From: Alphaproteobacteria bacterium
GTDB lineage: Bacteria > Pseudomonadota > Alphaproteobacteria > SP197
Length of the DNA stretch: 64,000 bases
Direction: 5' to 3'
Assembly: GCA_964291415.2 (NCBI GenBank)
Contig: OZ219917.1
Location: forward strand, 192,001-256,000
The position numbers and the translations under genes are program-made. Shown one piece after another: positions 1-27,675 of the stretch. The notes beneath the pieces are model-generated. The model was not told the DNA's origin, did not search any database, and was given only the letters and a program-made list of their open reading frames with translations. Within the stretch, counting starts at the first letter, position 1; each line of letters starts with the position of its first letter.

Positions 1-29
1 ACGCAAGGATCGAACTGGGCTTCTACTGA
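1..29 (+). CDS. 3' end of probable SufT/DUF59 Fe-S assembly protein (partial)
   Basis: Reads ...ARIELGFY*, resembling SufT C-termini. Lies directly upstream of an A-type carrier gene. Confidence 0.5.
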
Positions 30-59
30 GCCCTGATGAGGACTGGAGAGGAAGCAGCC

Positions 60-404
60 ATGTTCGCAACACCCGGCAAGGATCTCATGACCCTGACCGA
101 CCGCGCCGCCGAGCGCGTCAAGGCGCTGATGCGCCTCAACGAGAACGCGATCGGGCTCAAGGTCGGAATCAAGATGGCCGGATGCAGCGGCTTTTCCTAC
201 ACGATGGACTATGCCGAGGAAGAGACCGGCCGGGAGGACAAGATCGAATCGAAGGGTGTCCGGCTCTTCATCGATCCCACCGCCTCGATGTTCCTGCTCG
301 GGACCGAACTCGACTGGCATGAGGACCAGTTGGAGAGCCGCTTCGTCTTCAACAATCCGAACGTGAAGGGCATGTGCGGTTGCGGTGAATCGTTCACCGT
401 CTGA
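60..404 (+). CDS. HesB/IscA/SufA A-type Fe-S cluster carrier
   Basis: GCSGFSY, GTELDW and FNNPN...CGCGESF motifs. Start could be 36 or 60. Confidence 0.95.
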   Translation: MFATPGKDLMTLTDRAAERVKALMRLNENAIGLKVGIKMAGCSGFSYTMDYAEEETGREDKIESKGVRLFIDPTASMFLLGTELDWHEDQLESRFVFNNPNVKGMCGCGESFTV

Positions 405-2402: not shown

Positions 2403-3009
2403 ATGACCGAAGAAGCAGCTCAACATCATCGATCGCACGCCCCTCGACATGCTGACAAGCCGCCGCTCGGTCCTCGCCGCACGGCTGGCCGAACCGGGCC
2501 CGGACGAGACGGAACTGGCACGCATGCTGGAGGTGGCGGTGCGGGTTCCCGACCACGGACGCGTCACGCCATGGCGCCTGCAGGTCCTCACGCGGCAGGC
2601 GCAGCAGGAACTGGGAGACGCCTTTGCCAAGGAGTTCACGAGGCAGAACCCGGGGGTCCCGGAGGATCGTCTGCACCTCGAGTGGATTCGCCCGCAGCGC
2701 TCTCCGGTCCTCGTCATCGTCTCCAGCCGCATCGTGCCGGACCGCGAGGGCGTCCCTCCGGTCGAGCAGCTGCTGTCGTGCGGCAACGTCTGCTTCAACC
2801 TGCTGCATGCGGCGACGGCCCTGGGCTACGGCGCCCAGTGGGTCACCAACTGGCCGGCCTACAACGAGAACATCAAGGCCGTGCTCGGCATTCCGCCCGA
2901 CGACCACCTGGTCGGCTTCGTCCACATCGGCACCCCGAAGGGTCCTCCCCAGGAACGCCAGCGCCCGGAGATCACCGACGTGGTCTCGCACCTCGACAGC
3001 CTTCCCTGA
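2403..3009 (+). CDS. Nitroreductase family protein (YdjA-like)
   Basis: SRRS, VPDHG..PWR and GYGAQWVT motifs. ORF from 2449; the ATG at 2403 joins it through an apparent 1-nt indel near 2410. Confidence 0.9.
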
Positions 3010-3021
3010 CAAGTCTCAAGG

Positions 3022-3045
3022 GCTGCCCCGCCATAGCGGGGCGGC
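3022..3045 (+). terminator. GC-rich hairpin, possible terminator
   Basis: gctgccccgc-cata-gcggggcggc, a 10-bp stem just after the nitroreductase stop. No U-tract. Confidence 0.45.
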
Positions 3046-3134
3046 TGCAAGGGTGATGCCCGCCGCAATCTCCCGCTCGGGCAGTTTGATTTCGTTGGCA
3101 AGAGATTCCTTGCCAAGAGTTCCGAACTTATGCG

Positions 3135-3326
3135 CTACTCCAGCGGGGCTGGGTTTACGCACCGGGCCCTGGGTCTTTCCTCAGGGCCAATCGGGAACCA
3201 CGCCGAGTCGTCCTCGTCGTCAGAAAACCAACTGCATGTGGCATCGCCATCCTCGTCAAGGTGGTGACAGTCATGAGGGGGCCACCCGATCCGGCGAACG
3301 GTGTCACCCAGAACAATATCACTCAT
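3135..3326 (-). pseudogene. YodC/DUF2158-like small protein, frameshifted
   Basis: Reads across frames as MSDIVLGDTVR..SGGPLMTV..DEDGDATCSWF....AWFP. Confidence 0.65.
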
Positions 3327-3852
3327 CGTCGATTCTTCCATTGCCTCGGTCACATTTCTTCTTTTCATCTCTTATTTGGGGGCCACGGTTGACGGTGGAG
3401 AAGTTCGCTCTTGCCACCTGCTCCTTGTCATGCCCGGGTGACAATGCTGGAATCAATCCTGCCAAAATGCAGGTGCCCGTCCTCTCGGGCCACCCGTCGA
3501 ATATTGCGGTCCCGGATCGGTATGGGATCGCTCTTCATGACTTGGCGAATTAGGCGAGAACTAACCGCACCGATGTATGATGCACCGCGATACGGCATCG
3601 GCTTGCTGCTGGAAATGACGGCGTCAGTTGATCCACAATCAGGGGCTCATGCCATCGCGCCAACGGATCCTCAATCCACGCCTCCGCCGCCGCGCGGGAA
3701 ATCTGGATGGACCGTCTCTCCCGGTAGGACCGCCCAAGTTCAATGCTTGGCCTCCCGCCATTGGCAAGCACTGCGCCAAATCACGGACGGTGTCGGAATC
3801 GGCGTTGCCAGTGAATGAGACACTACGCCTGCCCGAAAATGGGACCGAAGAC

Positions 3853-11225: not shown

Positions 11226-12488
11226 ATGAGAGACCGTAACTTGCTATTCTACGAAGAGGATTTGGACGCGCAGCTTCGAGGGCGACAGGAAACTGTTCCC
11301 GAAGCTGTTGACCGGATACCGAAAGATCAATTCCTAGTCTCAAACGATCAGGAATTGGTCGACCATGTGGTCGCTAGAATGACGGTAGAGCCACTCGTTC
11401 TACGCGAAAACGCAATGGTCATGAGTCAAAACGAAACGCAGGTGGATGTTTCTGGCGATTCTATGCGGGTGTTTATGTCCAATCGCAGTGGACCACTTTA
11501 CGTTCCGGGAACTCGCGTGGACATCGACATTCCCTTCACGGGAGAAGAGTGGATTTTCCAGTATCGGACCAACCCGTGGTCCTTGGTGCTCCCGCGCGCG
11601 GAAGTCCGACAGGGTCAATTGCGCCTCTGTATTTCGCAGCCGCACGACGCCGATCCCGCCAATTTCAGGTCGATTTACGATCGGGAGTTGAATCTGATTC
11701 GAGAGTACGTGGACCACTCACACAAGCAGGTGGTTGATTATAACGAGAGTCTGCCCAACTTGGTGCAGCGGTCGGTCAATAATCGTCGTGACCGACTTGG
11801 ACGTCATAGTAACATCGCGGGCTTGCTTGATATACCCTTAGCCACGCAACCTGGCGCACCTTCCATTGAGCCAGTGAAGGTGGAAATCCGGCGTCCTCCA
11901 GCTTTGCCCCAGGTGCCGAAGGCGGGTCTTATGCCAGAGCCGGGGATCACAGACGAGACCTACGGGCATATCCTTCAGTTCATTCGACACCAAGGACGCA
12001 CGTTTGAGCGGACGCCCAACACCTATGCCGTGCACGGTGAAGAAGACTTGCGCAACATCATATTGGCGCAGTTAAACGGGCACTTTCGTGGTGATGCCGT
12101 GGGTGAGGTGTTTCGAGGTAACGGCAAGACAGACATCTGCATCGAACAGGACAATCGCGCGGCCTTCGTGGGAGAATGCAAGATGTGGACGGGTGCAGCA
12201 GGCCTCATCGTAGCGATGGATCAGCTTCTCGGCTACCTGACTTGGCGTGATAGTAAAGCCGCCTTGATCATGTTCAACGTGAAGAACAAGGACTTCACCA
12301 AAGTCCTCAACGCAGTGCCCGAGACGCTTCGCGCTCATCCACTGTTCCTGCGTGATTTGGCTTGTTCCGAAGCCGGGGAATGGAGGGTGGAGATGCGTAG
12401 CGTCGAGAATGAGGGGCGGCGTGTCACTGTTCAGGCGTTTGTCTTCAACTTGTTCCAGGCTAGTGGTGTACGGACACGAGCGCTCTAA
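11226..12488 (+). CDS. Hypothetical protein with C-terminal PD-(D/E)XK nuclease-like domain
   Basis: EEDLR...GKTDI...FVGECKMW...DQLLGY restriction-endonuclease-fold motifs. Intact 420 aa with atypical codon usage. Confidence 0.7.
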   Translation: MRDRNLLFYEEDLDAQLRGRQETVPEAVDRIPKDQFLVSNDQELVDHVVARMTVEPLVLRENAMVMSQNETQVDVSGDSMRVFMSNRSGPLYVPGTRVDIDIPFTGEEWIFQYRTNPWSLVLPRAEVRQGQLRLCISQPHDADPANFRSIYDRELNLIREYVDHSHKQVVDYNESLPNLVQRSVNNRRDRLGRHSNIAGLLDIPLATQPGAPSIEPVKVEIRRPPALPQVPKAGLMPEPGITDETYGHILQFIRHQGRTFERTPNTYAVHGEEDLRNIILAQLNGHFRGDAVGEVFRGNGKTDICIEQDNRAAFVGECKMWTGAAGLIVAMDQLLGYLTWRDSKAALIMFNVKNKDFTKVLNAVPETLRAHPLFLRDLACSEAGEWRVEMRSVENEGRRVTVQAFVFNLFQASGVRTRAL

Positions 12489-12513
12489 GGTCTGAACATT
12501 TCAGCGACGAGCG

Positions 12514-13159
12514 CTAGGTTGTTGCTGTGTTGTTGATGCTGTCAACGGATGAGACCATTCTGAAGCTATGCGCCGTCACTAGGCCTTGCTTCACCTTCTT
12601 GAATTCGCTGAACACCCTGAGCGCGAGTGCGAGATAATCCTCTTGTGGCGGGCCAAGTTGGTCCAGAATAGCTCTGCAGACCGCAACGACGTTCGCAGTG
12701 GTGTTGGGACATTTTGCGGAAAGTGTTAGGCACGTGCTGTTGAGGTCGGCGAACAAAACTGGCGCCTGCGCCCCCGGGATCAGCGACGACCGACGCGTCA
12801 ATTGGATGGAGCGCACCCGCTGAGGCCGATGGTTTCTTCCCCAGTCCGAAGTCCTCGCCATGATCTACCTCCCGCGTGCAGAACCCGTGCATCACGAACC
12901 CCACATCTATTGGTCATGACGATAGTGTTTAGTCACCTGCAGAGACCAGGCGGATGGCGCATCTGTCACCAGTACGGTATTCAAAGAACGCATTCAACCA
13001 ATACATCGCAATTGTCTCTATGATGCTGCGAACACCCGCATCGAGCACCTGGCTCACGATCGATTTCCGGAAACCGCAACGACTCCTGCCGTGTACCTTG
13101 TGGTACAGTAGCAGCCACTCGACAAGATATTGGGGGGGGAATGAATCAAAGGACAACAA
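12514..13159 (-). pseudogene. Degraded SagB/nitroreductase-like gene
   Basis: Only the KPSASAGALHPID motif is recognisable. The region is broken into short ORFs. Confidence 0.35.
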
Positions 13160-13364
13160 GGAGCGCCCACCACTTGGTATACCGTCTCTACTCGGCTAGG
13201 ATACCTCTTGAACTTGTGGCGCTGACTGCCTAAATTTAACCATGCTCACTTTGTTTGGCCCAAATGATGCCTTGTAAGACAATGGTGCTTCCAATTCTGT
13301 GTTTGCGCAGGACGAAAACTCTAAATCAAGTTGATCTCTTACTCTCTTCTTTTGCGATACTACT

Positions 13365-14324
13365 ATGCCCAAACATCAGACTACTCGCGAGCCTCCGGAA
13401 TTCAATCACATTGAACCGGTAGAAGGAGATCTACTCTCCGATGAACCTGATGCCTTGCTCCGCACCCACCGGAAGTTGCAACTTGCAATTCTTCGACTTC
13501 GGAAGAATGTGGATAAGGGGAATGCCCTTATCGACTTCCGCAACTGCGAAGAAATAGATCCTGGCGGTTTGCTGCTAACAATGTATGCAGTCTTTCCGCT
13601 TCTCAGAGATAACCAGCTGTCTCTCTGGTATCGGAGTCGCGGCGCTGTAAGGGCGTATCTCCTAGAAAACATAGACCATTATCGTCAACGACGATCCGCC
13701 CATAGCAATAATCGCTCAGACGACTTTCTACTTCGTCGAATAAAAACAAGAGAAGCTATGGTCAATGACCTCAATCAGTATGCTTCATCCCTTAGACAAG
13801 CATCTCTTATCTCGAGTCGCGAAGTCGCAATATGGGAAACACAAGTTGGCGAACTCACAACCAACGGATTTCAACATGGAAACGCTCTCAGGGACGATCC
13901 GCAAGAACGCGATCTAGTTATGAATCTTGTAGCCGGCAAGGCATATGAAGAAAAAGGTAGAGTTGAAATGGGTGTACTAGACTTTGGCGCCGGCATTCCT
14001 CGTGTAATTGAGCGAGTGGCACCTGATACAGTGCGTGCAAAAGGAGACGGTCAATTAATAGCGTACGCGCTCAGAAAAGGAATAACTTCCCGAACGGTTA
14101 TCGAGAATCAAGGAGCGGGGCTTCATGGAATTGTGGATGCCGTCAAGGAAAATGGGGGGCGTCTCCTACTCTTCTCTGGCGGAGGCTTGGTATGCGTAAA
14201 GAATGGTCGTGTCTCAAGCAGAAAAATCAATGACAGGTGTAACCAACCGACACTAGAAGGCACCTTGGCAATTATAATTCTTAATTTACAGGGGGGAGTG
14301 GCGCAATGTCACAAACAATATTAG
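13365..14324 (+). CDS. STAS-like domain plus GHKL/HATPase (RsbW-like kinase) protein
   Basis: N-terminal IDFRNCEEIDPGGL (STAS-like). N box GELTTNGFQHG, G1 DFGAGIP, G2 GITSR..NQGAGL and C-terminal GT. Confidence 0.8.
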   Translation: MPKHQTTREPPEFNHIEPVEGDLLSDEPDALLRTHRKLQLAILRLRKNVDKGNALIDFRNCEEIDPGGLLLTMYAVFPLLRDNQLSLWYRSRGAVRAYLLENIDHYRQRRSAHSNNRSDDFLLRRIKTREAMVNDLNQYASSLRQASLISSREVAIWETQVGELTTNGFQHGNALRDDPQERDLVMNLVAGKAYEEKGRVEMGVLDFGAGIPRVIERVAPDTVRAKGDGQLIAYALRKGITSRTVIENQGAGLHGIVDAVKENGGRLLLFSGGGLVCVKNGRVSSRKINDRCNQPTLEGTLAIIILNLQGGVAQCHKQY

Positions 14325-14611
14325 CTTCTGAGATTGTGGATCACCGTTTTCCACCAGAGGAAGGAGCAGAGTTGGCAAGAACATTGCTTCAACAGGACTT
14401 AGAATGGGACGATCTCACCGTCGATCTTAAGGGTCTACCAGCCAGCCTTCTGATTTCCGCTTTCTTTAATGGCTTTCTTGCAGTCATTACTTCCGACCGA
14501 CCGGAGCTTCTGCCGAAGGCGAAGAAAATACGATGGCAGTTGGACTATGACTTCCAAAGGGAGAATGTCGCTCGGTGGATGAGAGGGTTTTCGGGCATCC
14601 AATTGGAGTGA
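14306..14611 (+). CDS. DUF4325-like STAS domain protein
   Basis: EEGAEL...LTVDLKGL...ISAFFNGFL pattern. Overlaps the upstream gene and has a GGAG RBS. Confidence 0.75.
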   Translation: MSQTILASEIVDHRFPPEEGAELARTLLQQDLEWDDLTVDLKGLPASLLISAFFNGFLAVITSDRPELLPKAKKIRWQLDYDFQRENVARWMRGFSGIQLE

Positions 14612-14617
14612 TGTCAG

Positions 14618-15472
14618 ATGACTTGTCATGTTGCGTTTTCGAGTGACGTTGGTGCAGTTTTGTTTTCGGACAGCCAGCTGTCTACGGACAAGACAGGATA
14701 TCACGGCTTTCAGAAGCAGTTCGTTGGCGACGATTTCCTGCTTGGGGGGTCCGGAAACAGTTTGGTTATCGAAGAGGTCTTTAAATCGCTGAGAGATTCT
14801 ACAACGGGGGTGTGCACTGTCGATGGCGGGACAGTGGCGAATCACATTGTAGCGTTTTTGCAAAGGAACGTTAGTAGGCCGGCTGCTGCCGGCACAAACT
14901 TTATCTTGATATGCCTAAATCAGAGCGGCAAGCCAAGAATTAGGATTCTATACCCTTCCACGTTTGACTTTTTCATCTCAAGAGATCACTTCGGCACGCT
15001 GGGATCTGGATCTGAGCTCGTGAGTTCTGCGATTGAGAGAGATAGAATGCTGGGCCTTTTTCGACAGCCCTTAGAGTTGGTAGACATGATAGTGGCGGGA
15101 GAAAATTATCTTGATGCTGCCACGAAAAGTCTCACCGTTGATTCACAGTTCACTGTGGGAGTGCTCCGATCGAAAAGAGCGTATCTAATGGGTGATGTGC
15201 GAATTACAATGCAATATGCACCACCAGCGATCGCAGCGAAGTGGAATAGCGCTTCGAAATTGTATGAAGCAATTCTGGCTCATGCTCAACAGATTCGAGG
15301 AGAAATTCGAGAAGCACAGCGAGTGTTGTCCAAAGTTCAAGTTGCTCAATTAGACAAAGCTGCAGTTTCCGCAATTGAGGCAAGCCAAGTCTCAGTGAGT
15401 CAAAATAGACAGGCGCTTCATGCAAAAATCGAAAGTTACTTAAATTGGTATGATAGGTTGCTGAACCGCTGA
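14618..15472 (+). CDS. Proteasome-beta/HslV/Anbu-like Ntn hydrolase with C-terminal helical extension
   Basis: After Met removal: T1, D17-S18, K32, S44-G45 and G128-S129-G130-S131. The last ~80 aa are amphipathic and helical. Confidence 0.8.
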   Translation: MTCHVAFSSDVGAVLFSDSQLSTDKTGYHGFQKQFVGDDFLLGGSGNSLVIEEVFKSLRDSTTGVCTVDGGTVANHIVAFLQRNVSRPAAAGTNFILICLNQSGKPRIRILYPSTFDFFISRDHFGTLGSGSELVSSAIERDRMLGLFRQPLELVDMIVAGENYLDAATKSLTVDSQFTVGVLRSKRAYLMGDVRITMQYAPPAIAAKWNSASKLYEAILAHAQQIRGEIREAQRVLSKVQVAQLDKAAVSAIEASQVSVSQNRQALHAKIESYLNWYDRLLNR

Positions 15473-19249: not shown

Positions 19250-20110
19250 TCACAAATCTATTTTATCGTTGACGAGCCGGAATCAGAAAGCGCCATCGTC
19301 TGTACACCACGCTTGTTCGCAGAATCGCAGCAAAATTTCTGATCACCATGCGTTCCAACTGCACTCTGTGTATCCTCAGTGCATCCGGCAAAACATCGTA
19401 TCGGTAAAAGTTCCAGTCTCTGATTGAAGGATGTCCCGCTCTAAATCTTTGGATCAACTGTCTGCCTCACCAATGTAGAAGAGTTTCTTGTTTGTATCAA
19501 TCAACATGTAAATGACATTTTCTGCTCCGATCTCGGATTCGAAATCGTCGCGTGAACACCAGTCCTGTTTGTAGATACGAATGGTGTTCTTGTTGGCCAA
19601 TTCGTCATCGATCCGTTTAAGGGTTGGCGAGTATGTGAGTCGACGGAATAACTCCGGGAATGTCGGAGTTTGAGTGTAGTGGGCGGTCATGCGAACCGTC
19701 TTCGACTCTTTGTCGAATTCGATGTCGAGGAATTCCCAAAATGGTATATCCCTTTCGATGTCGGAGTCGGTATCTGGCCGCAGACGGCTTTCGATGTCGC
19801 GCATGAAAGTCATAAGGAATACTTCTTTAAGTTCATTCTTTAAATCATCACCAAACCACATGCGGTAAACCTTGTTGGCGCGATTTTTGGGCCAAGTACA
19901 CGTTACCTGACCGGCGTATCTTTTCTTGTTAAAGTTGATCGAGAATGTCGATCCTTCGTCCTCCTTTCCCATTAGACCGGGGAAGACCTCGTCAAGGTTC
20001 CAGACTTTGCATACCCACATGGGAACAGTCGTTCCCTTATGTTGAAACAAGGAGGGTCAACCTTCTTGCGCCAGAGTGGAAAATCGACATTGGGTTCGTT
20101 CTCTTGGCAT
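19250..20110 (-). pseudogene. GIY-YIG nuclease domain protein, frameshifted
   Basis: N-terminus MPRERT-NVDFPLWRKKVD-SLFQHKGT. C-terminus VIYMLIDTNKKLFYIGEA..LIQRF...LERMVI. Confidence 0.75.
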
Positions 20111-20909
20111 TTAACACCTCTCAGCGATGGGGGTCGCAGGCTAACTGCTTAACCCGACCGCACTCCGGTCAAACAAACACACTTCGAGAACGCCTTTGAC
20201 GCCGTTGATATGAACAGGGTTGGTGATGTATCGAACTGAGGCTCACTCGGCACTCTTGAAGCAACAGCTTAGGAGAGCCGCCAACCTGAGGCGACAGTGA
20301 TAAGACTGTTCCGCAGGTCATGGGACCAGCACTTGGTGCCGCCAGCCTCCTAATACGGGGCTGGAGAAGGTGCGGGTCTTGGACATGGCGGTGGGCGCCG
20401 GTGCCCAAGAGGAACATTCAATCGCGAGCATGAGTCGAGTAGTTGCTCGCCTCGACTCTGCGGCGTTCAGGATTGACCGAGAACTGCCGGGCAACCGGGA
20501 ATTCCAAGAGTACATCAGCCTTTTGTTGCTTGGTTGGATAGCACCTCGGAAACCGAGCAACTTGTCGCCTGGCTGGAATGTATCGATGGTCGGTTGGCGA
20601 CTGTCGTACGTATCCTGGCAGTTCGTATTCCGGGTTTCTCTGACATAGCACCCATATAGGGACGCCCGAAATTTGGTCAACTCAACAATCAATACCAAAA
20701 TGGAAGTGACTGTCTTCCAAAGTCGCAGTTAGTCTTCTGGAGTCAACAGCGAATAATCTTCAACACTCTGAAAACGGCGTGCATGGCAGTTAGATTGCCC
20801 GTTCAGGTAGTTGTTTGTCGCCGCTTAAGAGCGAAATCACTTTCCTGAAGGTCGCAGCCTCAGCTTGCGTTGACGCCTCGTCCAGCTGACGAATGGGAAG
20901 CAGGTGGAA

Positions 20910-22992
20910 TCAAGTGGAGAGGCCGAGGTCGCGTTTCTTGCTGGCGGCCCAGGCCTGGATGATGCGGTCGGCGATCATGGCCATGAGGGCCATGGATCCG
21001 CCGGCGATGACGCCCTGGCCGAACTTGGCGTTGGTGAGGCTGTCGTAGACCCACTGGCCGAGGCCCTTGGTGCCGACGAGGGCGGCGATGACGAGCATGG
21101 CGAGGGCGAACATCACGACCTGGTTGAGGCCGACCATGATCTCGGGGATGGCCAGCGGGAGCTTGACCTTCCAGAGGATCTGCCTCTCGGTGCAGCCCAT
21201 CATCCGGGCGGCCTCGATGGCGACCGGGTCGACGTGGCGGATGCCGTGCTCGGTGTAGCGGATGGCCGGCACGATGGCGTACATGATGATGGCGAGCAGC
21301 GCCGAGAAATCGCCCACCAGGAACACCATCACCACGGGGATGAGGAAGACGAAGAGCGGCATCGTCTGCAGGGTGTCGTTGATCGGCCGCAGGACGGCGG
21401 AGACGCGGTCGTTCTGCGCCGCCCAGATTCCTAAGGCCCCGCCGGCCACGAAGCAGATGATGACCGAGGTGGCGGTGAGATAGAACGACAGCATGGCCCT
21501 GTGGCCAGGCGCCGCTCACCAGCATGAAGATCATGCCGAGGAAGGCGAAGAGGGCAACCCTCCAGCCGCCGACCTGGAAGGCGATCAGGGTGACGGCGGC
21601 GATGAAGACGGGCCACGGCGTTCCGGACGAACCGTAGTAGAAGAGGATGCCCAGGAGCGCTGTGGCGACGGCGGCGCGCCAGCCGCCCAGCCGTGCCGCC
21701 AGGGAGCCGATGGCCACCAGGATCATCCAGTAGATGACGGACGCCAGCGCCGTCATCTCGAAGCCCCACGAGGTGGGCCGGGCAATCCTCTCGAGGCCCG
21801 CCTTCATGGGCAGCATGAAGAAATAGAGCGTATAGGTCTTGATGGCGTCCGTGGTGTCGAAGAAGTTGCGGGTGAACCAGGAGACCGCGGTGTTGAGTCT
21901 CTCGGCAGGATCGATGATCCATGCCTCGGGATAGGCGCTGAACACCGGCACCGCCCACGAGAGCAGCGTGCCGGCGGCGACCGCCGCTGCCATGGAGACA
22001 AGCATGGGATGCCGCGCGATGTAGTTGCCCGAACGACGCACGTGGATCTCTCCCGTTCGTTCGGCGAAGCCGCGGCTGATGCGGTCCATCATCATGGCGA
22101 TCAGCACGATGACCAGTCCGGCGAGGAGACTCTGGCCGGTCTGGGCCTTGCGCATCGTGGAGAGCACCTCCCAGCCGATATCGGCGAAGCCGCCGATGAT
22201 GGCGGCGATGATCACCATGGCGAGTGCCGCCATGATGGTCTGATTCACGCCGATCATGATCGTGTGCATCGCTGCCGGAACACGCACCATGAAGAGGAGC
22301 TGGAAACCGTTGCAGCCGGACATCTGACCGCTCTCGATGACATTGTCGGGAACCCTTTGGAGCCCCAGCATGAGGTTCCTCACCATGGGCGGGCTGGCGT
22401 AGATTGCCGAGGCCACCATGCCGACCACGGGCCCGATCCCGAAGAGAATGAGGATGGGAATGAGATAGGCGAACGTCGGCACCGTCTGCATCACGTCCAG
22501 CGTCGGTTCGATGACGCGCCGGGCCCAGCGGAACTGGAAACCGAGCAGTCCCATGATGAACCCGATCATGACCGAAAGCGGCACGGACATGCAGACCAGC
22601 GCCAGGGTCGACATGCTCTCGTCCCAGTATCCGACGACCACCATGTAGAGAAGCGAGGCGATGCAGAAGGCGGAGAGACGCCAGCCTTTGGCGGCGTAGG
22701 CGATGATCGCCACGATGGCGATCGTGACCGGCCACGGCGATGTCTGCAGCACGGCCTGGATTCCCCTCATCGGCCATTCGAGGGCATCGGAAATCAGGCG
22801 GAAGAGCGGCTTGAAGTTGGCCGTGAACCAGTCCATCAGAAACTCGAGGCCGGCCTCGATGGGAAGAATCCAGCCCGTGGGATACTTGACGAGCCATTTC
22901 GCGTCGTCACGCAGGACGAGGCAGAGGATCGCCAGGACGCCGAAGACCAGCCAGACCAGGAGCCTGGGCGGCAGCAGGCGCGCCGGGTTCAC
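20910..22992 (-). CDS. Glycine betaine/proline-type ABC permease (double ProW domain), one frameshift near 21495
   Basis: MQTVPTFAYLIP and LQTMPLFVFLIP motifs plus EAA loops. The two halves are in different frames. Confidence 0.88.
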
Positions 22993-26254: not shown

Positions 26255-26668
26255 ATGGTGGAGAAGATCGTCAGGACCGACGAGGAGTGGCGGGCCCAGC
26301 TGACCGAGGAGCAGTTCAGGGTCACGAGGCGCGCCGGAACGGAAAGACCGTTCACCGGGGCCTATCACGGAACCGGCGAACCGGGCCTCTATCGCTGTGT
26401 GTGCTGCGGTGCGGCGCTCTTCGAATCGGCGACCAAGTTCGAATCAGGCACCGGGTGGCCGAGTTTCTGGGCCCCGGTCGACGACGAGGCGGTCGAGCTC
26501 AGGTCCGACAGGAGCATCTTCTTCATGCCCCGGACCGAGGTGGTCTGCGCCCGCTGCGACGCCCATCTCGGCCATGTCTTCCCCGACGGGCCGCCCCCGA
26601 CCCACCAGCGCTACTGCATGAATTCGGCCGCCCTCACCCACGAGAAGGCGAACGACGGCGGGACGTGA
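26255..26668 (+). CDS. msrB: Peptide-methionine (R)-S-oxide reductase
   Basis: [26 protein letters not shown] and RYCMNS motifs. Confidence 0.97.
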
Positions 26669-27675
26669 AGCCCGGGCCTCTCAATCTCATCACCGATGTC
26701 GATGGCATCCTCGTCGGTCAGGCGGAGGATCACCACGTCAGGACCGGTGTCACCGCCATCGTCCCCGCAGAACGCGTCACGGCCGCCGCCGACGTGCAGC
26801 GGCGGCGCCCCTGGCACACGCGAGACCGGCACGCTCCATGTCGCCAGCCTCGTTGACGCCGTGGACGCGGTCGTGCTCTCCGGCGGCTCGGTCTTCGGTC
26901 TCGATGCGGCGGGAGGCGCCGTGGCACGGCTGGCCGAAGAAGGGCGGGGATTTCCCACCTCCGCCGGCAGGATTCCGGTGGTGCCCGCGGCCATCCTCTT
27001 CGACCTCGCAAACGGCGGCGACAAGGCCTGGGGCCGTCAGTCTCCCTACCCTGATCTGGGTTACCGGGCGGTCCAGGCGGCGGCGCAGCGTTTCGAACTG
27101 GGCAACGCCGGCGCCGGTCTCGGCGCCAGTGCCGGAATCCTCAAAGGAGGAACGGGGAGCGCCTCGGCGGTCACCGACAGCGGTCTCCAGGTCGGAGCCC
27201 TCGTTGCGGTCAACGCTGTCGGATCGACGGTGATCCCCGGCACCTCGACGCTCTGGGCGGCACTCTTCGAACAGGCCGGCGAGATGGGGATGGCGCCACG
27301 CTCGCTGCCCGACCGGTCCGATGGACCTCGATGACAAGTTCAAGGGCTTCGCCGGCGAAAACACCACCATTGGCGTTGTTGCGACCAATGCGACTCTCGA
27401 CAAGGGAGCGCTCAATCGCATCGCCATCATGGCCCATGACGGGCTGGCCCGCGCCATCCGTCCCGTTCACACACCCTTCGACGGCGACACCTTGTTCGCG
27501 CTCGCCACGGCGAGGCACCCCGACGACCATCGATCCCGTCACGCTCGCACGCCTGGGCTCGATGGCGTCTGACTGCGTGACGAGGGCGACCGGAAGGGCC
27601 ATGGTAGCGGCCCTGACCCTTGACGGCATGACGAGCTACAGCGACTGGAGGGATGGCAGGTGCCAACAGCAGTGA
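26665..27675 (+). pseudogene. P1/DmpA family peptidase with about three frameshifts
   Basis: NLITDVDGILVG, GGAPGTRET, LSGGSVFGL, NTTIGVVATN and PFDGDTLF fall in different frames (shifts near 26797, 27310 and 27515). Confidence 0.85.

Follow-up and report, generated by a model that had tools for sequence, protein, structure and literature searches.

Besides the 20S proteasome beta subunits, HslV, Anbu, BPH and Connectase, 22 further families of proteasome homologs were described by Fuchs, Alva and Lupas in 2021 (PMC8665760). Coiled-coil C-termini are predicted for WPH, ACC and some PHI, and RPC, DAH and 'DGH' are among the families with coiled-coil or extra C-terminal parts (PMC8665760). For none of the 22 families did genomic context or a co-occurrence pattern point to function or accessory factors (PMC8665760). 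Here we describe a protein related to these families, encoded at positions 14618..15472 (+) of a 64,000-nucleotide stretch of contig OZ219917.1 from an Alphaproteobacteria bacterium (the whole stretch is referred to below as the window). As in the families of Fuchs et al. (DPH, WPH, ACC and others), the protein and its relatives are divergent, lack a propeptide, are found only in prokaryotes and are recognized by remote homology. In contrast to those families, as far as their published descriptions allow the comparison, the family described here has a strict three-gene context: the protease-like gene (gene 3) follows a gene for a predicted kinase of the partner-switching type (gene 1) and a gene for a small STAS-like protein (gene 2). 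The new element is this pairing of a divergent proteasome homologue with partner-switching-type kinase and STAS-like proteins.

The proteasome-like protein and its catalytic residues

Gene 3 is an intact open reading frame (ORF) of 284 aa, predicted to encode a proteasome-beta-like threonine hydrolase of the N-terminal nucleophile (Ntn) type. It starts with ATG, is preceded by a GGAG located 10-13 nt 5' of this codon, and is separated by a 6-nt gap from the stop of the preceding gene. The translation contains T2, D18, K33 and G129-S130-G131-S132, which without the initiator Met become T1, D17, K32 and G128-S129-G130-S131, and also the segment K170-SLTVDSQF-178. An earlier reading of this DNA, made from the sequence only, had pointed to this near-canonical catalytic register, to the KSLTVDSQF segment and to the lack of a propeptide. 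All three points hold: every residue that it listed is present, the segment lies at residues 170-178, and Thr directly follows the start Met. Removal of Met ahead of Thr is expected from the specificity of methionine aminopeptidase, and we infer that it exposes Thr1 as the nucleophile. The catalytic core (residues 1-208; 14618..15241, +), supported by alignment of the model with VIA, by conservation and by the alignment to HslV based on a hidden Markov model (HMM), is predicted to have the alpha-beta-beta-alpha Ntn fold and carries T2, D18, K33, G46, G129-S130-G131 and S171-L-T-V-D175.

A profile search of 1.84 billion representatives returned 130 proteins at E <= 0.001, and about 70 full-length clusters of the gene 3 family at 50% identity are present among these representatives. 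For the analysis of conservation, 89 relatives of 255-310 aa were kept from 99 identifiers (P0001-P0099), with 10 dropped for length. Thr occupies position 2 in 75/89, which are all the relatives with a complete N-terminus; the other 14 begin further in (e.g., 8 at an internal Met15) and, from their alignment, look like short start calls. Thr1, Asp17, Lys33 and Gly47 form the catalytic triad and oxyanion hole of the proteasome family (PMC8665760). Nearly invariant among the 89 relatives are D18 (88), K33 (89) and G46 (89), as well as G129 (89), S130 (88), G131 (89) and S171 (87). The last of these is part of a conserved motif, A168-x-x-S171-L-T-V-D175 (A168 in 80/89), and may, judging from the alignment, correspond to proteasome Ser169. 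Since the catalytic residues are kept in 88-89/89 relatives, the gene 3 product is probably an active enzyme under selection, and the retention of the catalytic triad and oxyanion positions is not what is expected of a pseudo-enzyme. We consider it very probable that the protein is an active hydrolase of the proteasome family.

The gene 3 protein is matched by no Pfam, NCBIfam or PADLOC model, and PF00227 gives no match at E values up to 1. Searches of PDB sequences, with the single sequence and with a 31-sequence profile, returned no proteasome match (the best was ParM, E 0.17). When PF00227 was compared with 31 family members, 0/31 scored above the cut-off and 2/31 below it (best E 0.042), unlike HslV and Anbu of the same class, which do pass the PF00227 cut-off.

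Predicted structure

The AlphaFold2 model of the gene 3 product, built on a 31-sequence alignment (33 homologues minus two 200-aa fragments), has a predicted local distance difference test score (pLDDT) of 90.7 and a predicted template modelling score (pTM) of 0.89. Foldseek with this model retrieved 20S beta subunits (E 4e-11, probability 1.00). VIA-align on the Foldseek matches gave Z 18.9 for the Thermoplasma (T. acidophilum) beta subunit, with 188 aligned residues, a root-mean-square deviation (rmsd) of 2.9 and model residues 2..225 on chain residues 1..201, and Z scores of 18.8 for M. tuberculosis PrcB and 18.4 for Anbu. VIA also aligns model residues 2..195 to beta-subunit residues 1..191. 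Residue 2 of the model superposes on residue 1 (Thr1) of mature beta subunits. The Ntn alpha-beta-beta-alpha fold, on which the sequence-only reading had staked its proposal of a proteasome homologue, is found in the model with Z 18-19 over 188-211 residues.

A second, independent structural scan covered 48,161 PDB representatives. The best single representative was Anbu (5loy_A; Z 18.2, 207 residues aligned, model 2..245), followed by 20S beta subunits (Z 17.3-14.9), alpha subunits (Z about 14), HslV (Z 13.7), BPH (Z 13.2 and 12.2) and Connectase (Z 10.5 and 9.9, 138 aligned); other Ntn hydrolases gave Z 10.7 and lower. In the nearest ESM Atlas clusters to the protein (score 0.94-0.95), PF00227 is found in 23-41% of members. 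By its predicted structure, the gene 3 product is a genuine, very divergent relative of the proteasome catalytic subunit, and the model is less similar to BPH and Connectase than to the 20S beta subunits or Anbu.

Following the core, residues 209-281 (15242..15460, +) form an antiparallel two-helix hairpin in the model (DSSP helices 209-242 and 247-281), so that the helical C-terminal addition proposed in the sequence-only reading appears as two long helices. This hairpin of ~75 residues matches a designed helical hairpin, DHD127 (Z 6.5, rmsd 2.0, 72 residues). The structural alignment with Anbu reaches model residue 245-248, along the first tail helix, which thereby resembles the long H5 of Anbu. 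Tail positions conserved among the 89 relatives include W209 (83/89), E229 (79/89), Y278 (81/89) and D279 (87/89), and the tail is shared by an archaeal sister group (discussed below), for which the hhalign alignment over 265 columns extends to residue 280. Because the conserved tail positions are polar and aromatic, the conservation pattern suggests that the hairpin is more than a generic coiled coil and provides a specific interface.

The three-gene cassette

The sequence-only reading had treated the protein as an orphan. This view has to be given up, since gene 3 is the third gene of a cassette in 6/6 loci, all with the identical gene order 1-2-3: the window, a locus (L001) of a metagenome-assembled genome (MAG) of Candidatus Foliamicus (Gammaproteobacteria), and four metagenome loci (L002-L005). 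Related loci were searched with a 12-sequence alignment, and the cassette loci range from 58% down to 33% identity. The genes are tightly packed: in the window genes 1 and 2 overlap by 19 nt and genes 2 and 3 are separated by 6 nt; in L001 there is a 4-nt overlap, then direct abutment; and in L002 a 2-nt gap is followed by a 4-nt overlap. All three genes are intact in the window, and there is no fourth conserved gene.

Additional links come from other genomes. The gene 2 and gene 3 homologues of Sorangium sp. So ce269 have consecutive locus tags. Co-location with a gene-3 homologue, judged indirectly by equal longest-contig size, was found for 16/25 gene-1 and 12/23 gene-2 homologues. Complex prediction for genes 1, 2 and 3, with gene 3 as partner, returned 0.00 in two runs without controls, a value that is evidence neither way.

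Predicted kinase and STAS-like partners

Gene 1 (13365..14324, +) encodes a protein of 319 aa, for which the AlphaFold2 model (pLDDT 79.5) and motifs indicate a STAS-like N-terminus (~15-126) and a GHKL domain (~118-311). Compared with 48,161 chains, the model has its best match in SpoIIAB (1l0o_A; Z 14.2, 137 of 141 residues aligned, rmsd 2.6), followed by UsfX (Z 11.8), the RsbW domain of Rv1364c (Z 11.6), RsbW (Z 11.5) and SiaB (Z 10.7). These five best matches are all partner-switching kinases; histidine kinases score Z 10.3 or lower. The ATP-binding boxes (N, G1 and G2) are invariant in 25 sequences (E163/N167/H171, D206xG208 and N248-Q-G250-x-G252-L). Thus, on the basis of its model, the C-terminal domain is a SpoIIAB/RsbW-type GHKL kinase/ATPase fold with intact boxes. 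The N-terminal domain is beta-alpha-beta in the model and weakly resembles STAS domains: profile comparison gives a weak match of residues 44-99 to the MlaB STAS domain (E 0.08), and the value for SpoIIAB is E 0.4. Gene 1 is assigned to no family by Pfam or NCBIfam. Among PADLOC models it matches DrmA (E 5.5e-6 over residues 185-289, the GHKL region) and SspF (E 0.0066).

Gene 2 (14306..14611, +) encodes a small protein of 101 aa, described from ESM Atlas features and an alignment as DUF4325/STAS-like. It has 23 homologues and is highly conserved, with P16, G20, L48, I50, S51, F53, F54, N55, L58, F83, Q84, N87, W91 and F95 invariant in the alignment. Pfam DUF4325 is matched by 1/25 family members (E 0.063), and the three best ESM Atlas clusters carry DUF4325 (scores 0.86-0.87, 180-188 shared features). 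We regard the DUF4325/STAS-like assignment, which comes from these sequence comparisons, as a lead and not as proof.

The cassette invites comparison with partner-switching modules (SpoIIAB-SpoIIAA-sigmaF, RsbW-RsbV-sigmaB and SiaB-SiaC). Of the structures compared, it is these kinases that the GHKL domain of gene 1 most resembles, and a STAS-like element is present in the N-terminus of gene 1 and probably also in gene 2. In contrast to these modules, the third component is a proteasome-like protease and not a sigma factor or a diguanylate cyclase; moreover, the STAS-like domain is fused to the kinase, the cassette contains no PP2C gene, and phosphotransfer is only predicted.

Relationship to known proteasome-type families

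Two reference sets were used for comparison: 10 Anbu sequences, and 30 HslV sequences drawn from members of the same class, with the locus of one unpublished genome omitted. An HMM of the 89 family members matches 30/30 HslV (14.8-37.3 bits), and the alignment runs end to end through GSG with T2, D18, K33, GxAG and GSG in register. The same HMM matches 2/10 Anbu (best 15 bits). In the reverse direction, the HslV HMM matches 3/89 family members (best 14.5 bits) and the Anbu HMM 0/89. Comparison with hhalign gave 88.4% for the family versus HslV (E 2.8e-6, 132 columns) and 35.5% versus Anbu (E 3.9e-4). These values are rough because the control comparison, HslV versus Anbu, reached only 0.6%, such shallow alignments being insensitive.

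A tree of 57 rows made by a 'quick' method included 22 random family members (tail removed), 12 archaeal sequences, 12 HslV, 10 Anbu and 1 other. The gene 3 family forms one side of a branch with a Shimodaira-Hasegawa-like approximate likelihood ratio (SH-aLRT) support of 94, the values for HslV and Anbu being 100 and 97, and the window protein is placed deep inside its own family. The phylogeny suggested by the sequence-only reading, run here with HslV and Anbu, thus shows separate branches, and because of these the protein does not nest in HslV or Anbu. The deeper branching order is not interpretable due to long branches (2.4-4.9) and the 'quick' method. Of the further claim of a clade outside HslV, Anbu and BPH, the tree supports the first two; a separation from BPH may be indicated by the lower structural Z (13.2 and 12.2).

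Similarity to the 20S beta subunits (archaeal PsmB, actinobacterial PrcB; MEROPS T1, PF00227) includes the Ntn fold and nearly the same numbering of Thr1, Asp17, the Lys33 equivalent, the oxyanion Gly and Ser129. Unlike these subunits, the gene 3 family lacks a PF00227 match, a propeptide and an alpha-subunit gene, and the hairpin is added. Additionally, the D166 position seems to be Ala, and the partners are a GHKL kinase and STAS-like proteins, not AAA+ or Pup genes.

With Anbu the family shares a Met-Thr start, the lack of a propeptide and a long C-terminal helix (H5) after the core; where the gene 3 product has S-L-T-V, Anbu translations have S-N-L-S-V-G. In contrast to Anbu, the tail of the gene 3 product folds back as a second helix, and its branch in the tree is separate. 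Anbu operons are of a type that includes ATP-grasp and transglutaminase genes, whereas the operon of gene 3 has neither.

Among the known families compared, HslV is the only one with detectable sequence similarity to the gene 3 family, and in both only Met is removed to expose Thr. However, HslV is ~175 aa, has no tail and reaches only Z 13.7, whereas the gene 3 product has 284 aa and no NCBIfam HslV match. There is no HslU-like gene among the ORFs scanned beside gene 3, and true HslV genes lie on other contigs. In fact, the only PF00227 matches of the genome are on contigs other than that of gene 3. Two of these, HslV-type with identical scores, are at 71332-71847 and 26457-26972 of two contigs (G000 C3 and C4); the assembly is 4.44 Mb with 9% contamination, compared to 2.8 Mb for genomes of the same genus, and may hold duplicated or foreign sequence. 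More broadly, the sequence-only reading had found no HslU, alpha-subunit or ATP-grasp genes nearby, which is correct for the ORFs scanned at 7.4-23 kb, the range covered here. Two family members in JGI/IMG (P0040 and P0043) are named 'ATP-dependent protease HslVU (ClpYQ) peptidase subunit'; the name is misleading because these proteins have a 100-aa tail and belong to the cassette family, not to HslV.

BPH, a compact subunit without S12/H5, may also differ from the gene 3 product, whose model has a long C-terminal helix; such a helix is absent from group I homologues (PMC8665760). RPC and PPH lack helix H2 (PMC8665760), and since H2 is present in the model the gene 3 family is unlikely to be either of these.

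A sister group of the family consists of 25 archaeal proteins of 281-387 aa (P0119-P0153) from MAGs, of which named examples are 'Nanoarchaeota archaeon' and 'archaeon'. Of these proteins, 20/25 begin with M-T-N, as in the start M-T-N-I-M. They have a variable insertion after the first strand and S-S-G-V-N-D instead of S-L-T-V-D. With hhalign this group matches the gene 3 family at 99.7% (E 4e-27, 265 columns including the tail), and it may correspond to the ACC family (PMC8665760). The 20 clusters looked up included no WP_ accession (12 from the family and 8 archaeal), and the NCBI records are recent MAG or isolate entries.

Genomic context and distribution

The cassette lies in an island of low guanine plus cytosine (GC) content (0.50-0.52 over ~11.2-20.8 kb, compared to 0.62-0.69 in both flanks), flanked by ABC-transporter genes. 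In the same island, 0.9 kb upstream of the cassette, is a gene (11226-12488, +) for a protein of 420 aa without a Pfam or NCBIfam family; over its full length it corresponds to PDC-S54, a candidate single-gene system of PADLOC (E 8.7e-123). Defence or mobile genes also adjoin the cassette in L001 and L002. Neighbours in L001 have DndB/DpdB-like, HEPN, GIY-YIG, type III restriction endonuclease-fragment and Tle1-like domains, along with a DDE transposase, and those in L002 include BilC/BilD-like genes and a second, PF00227-type proteasome homologue. The neighbour in L003 is an ORF that resembles an integrase/recombinase by eye only, without a family search. Within the class, the gene 3 family is present in 1/401 genomes, which is the genome of the window, and it is absent from two genomes of the same genus. 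This context has the pattern of a mobile conflict/defence island, which is circumstantial.

Several other features of these loci were noted. In L002, genes for a BilC-like JAB protein (443-961) and a BilD-like E1/ThiF protein (961-2331) precede the 262-aa PF00227-type homologue (2990-3778, E 5e-9), which begins 0.7 kb downstream of the second, so that ubiquitin-like conjugation genes adjoin a proteasome homologue in a defence-type context in bacteria. Beside the cassette in L001 is a 454-aa ORF (11826-13190, -) with a Met-Thr start and no Pfam match; it was considered as another Ntn protein and rejected, given hhalign values of ~1% to the gene 3 family, HslV, Anbu and the archaeal group.

Downstream of gene 3 in the window, no long ORF with a family match was found at 15.5-20.8 kb. 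A 198-aa ORF (19454-20050, -) has no Pfam, PADLOC or NCBIfam match. Fragments of insertion sequences suspected by eye at 15.9-17.1 kb were not confirmed, as there is no Pfam match at E <= 0.01 and this sequence occurs only once in the genome. This part of the island, its downstream half, looks like degraded or unknown cargo. Beyond it, the first half of a 710-aa ORF (20860-22992, -) encodes a BPD_transp_1 permease domain and the second half is rich in Arg/Pro and belongs to no family; an overlapping ORF (20910-21494, -) carries a second BPD_transp_1 domain. A frameshift or an assembly error affecting a fused ABC permease gene may account for these overlapping ORFs.

Proposed mechanism and alternatives

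We propose, with a probability of roughly 0.55, that gene 3 encodes the threonine protease output of a kinase/STAS partner-switching module that probably serves in conflict or defence. The proposal draws on the models and on analogy with partner switching in SpoIIAB-SpoIIAA-sigmaF, by which the gene 3 product would act as a protease, the three proteins would bind one another, phosphorylation would take place and assembly would be controlled. Methionine aminopeptidase would expose Thr1, with Asp17, Lys32, the oxyanion glycine and Ser129 completing the site. The gene 1 kinase and the STAS/DUF4325-like gene 2 protein would together form a regulator of the partner-switching type. In the resting state, the kinase protein or the small protein would keep protease protomers apart or blocked. 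A trigger would alter the ATP-dependent interaction of kinase and STAS protein, and the protease would be freed, assemble via the conserved helical hairpin and become active. Proteasome subunits acquire activity only once they have assembled into the complex (PMC8665760), and the protease of the cassette is for this reason predicted to be active on assembly. Once released, it would degrade cellular or invader proteins, as part of a conflict/defence module of the abortive-infection type. Conflict or defence appears to be the likeliest role because the family occurs rarely and patchily, in islands of low GC content with defence genes nearby; taken by itself, a specific role in defence is nonetheless doubtful.

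A number of observations weigh against this proposal. The gene 3 family was not found in viral-contig, plasmid or phage collections, PADLOC models recognize neither gene 2 nor gene 3, and for gene 1 the match, to a region of DrmA, is weak. Neighbouring defence genes are circumstantial evidence for a role in defence. Furthermore, the ABC-transporter genes that flank the island are on different contigs or ~150 kb apart in the genomes of the same genus, and because the flanks are not adjacent there the island cannot be demonstrated to be a clean insertion. The STAS assignments are weak (MlaB at E 0.08, DUF4325 in 1/25 at E 0.063, Atlas scores <0.9). Lacking is a PP2C-type phosphatase gene, which classical partner-switching modules have: no PP2C match was found among the ORFs scanned in and around the cassette loci, those being the ORFs that the scan covered. 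As regards gene 3 itself, alignment places Ala168 at what may be the Asp166-equivalent position, in line with the replacement of D166 suspected in the sequence-only reading, so that the site may not be fully canonical. Only 4/6 loci have an intact gene 3, because the ORF in L004 departs from the family after ~residue 141 and that in L005 is cut by the contig end.

The same kinase/STAS-protease module could instead be physiological, serving the host in controlled proteolysis during a response to stress or in development. SpoIIAB, RsbW, SiaB and UsfX, to which the gene 1 model is most similar, belong to partner-switching modules that signal in stress, sporulation and biofilm formation, and such a role would fit the lack of defence HMM matches for genes 2 and 3 and of family members on phages and plasmids. 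However, the distribution is extremely patchy (the family is present in 0/400 of the class's remaining genomes and missing from two of the same genus), the cassette is in a low-GC island, and defence or mobile genes are beside it in the window, L001 and L002, with the by-eye integrase-like ORF in L003. Since this patchy distribution and island pattern are unusual for a housekeeping regulator, we consider a physiological role rather unlikely.

The sequence-only reading had also raised the idea of a Connectase-like ligase. Extended to the whole cassette, the gene 3 product would be a sequence-specific transpeptidase/ligase, or a self-contained processing enzyme that cleaves or ligates the product of gene 1 or 2, and would not act in degradation. 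The proteasome fold can serve as a ligase, as Connectase shows (PMC7980362; PMC8665760), the hairpin could mediate a monomer or dimer instead of rings, and the conserved partner genes could encode substrates. In Connectase, H1 and H2 are missing and two helices are inserted between S3 and S4 (PMC8665760). Because the gene 3 model has both H1 (48-57) and H2 (73-91), and also has no S3-S4 insertion, the Connectase-like reading is disfavoured; the structural scores point the same way (Z 10.5 and 9.9 for Connectase versus 17-19 for 20S beta and Anbu), and we regard this possibility as improbable.

That the gene 3 product is a catalytically dead scaffold, or the ORF a decayed one without present function, as the degraded look of the island at 15.5-20.8 kb, the disrupted L004 copy and the Ala at the D166 equivalent might suggest, is very improbable given an intact ORF with a Shine-Dalgarno sequence, tight coupling to two neighbours that are also intact, and the full catalytic set kept in 88-89/89 relatives.

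Implications

The proposal of a partner-switching protease may be extended, tentatively and with considerable doubt, to a new type of conflict/defence system in which the output is a self-compartmentalising protease in place of a sigma factor, and the kinase/STAS pair restrains its hairpin-driven assembly until infection or stress. If true, this module would give the first example of a proteasome homologue under a dedicated regulator that is not an AAA+ protein, and bacterial immunity would gain its first effector of the proteasome type. The gene 3 family has a sister family in DPANN-like archaea. Within the limited range of literature searched, we found no report that links a proteasome homologue to a kinase/STAS pair or to anti-phage defence. 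Because the family is rare, its general importance is limited unless the principle recurs.

Many proteasome homologues exist besides HslV, Anbu, BPH and Connectase, and the cassette gives a first clue to how one of them may be controlled. Its context, which is translationally coupled, leads to the hypothesis that partner switching controls the assembly of, or access to, a threonine protease. A protease output would widen the range of known outputs of partner-switching modules and, if the island context reflects function, a proteasome-type effector would join the conflict systems of bacteria.

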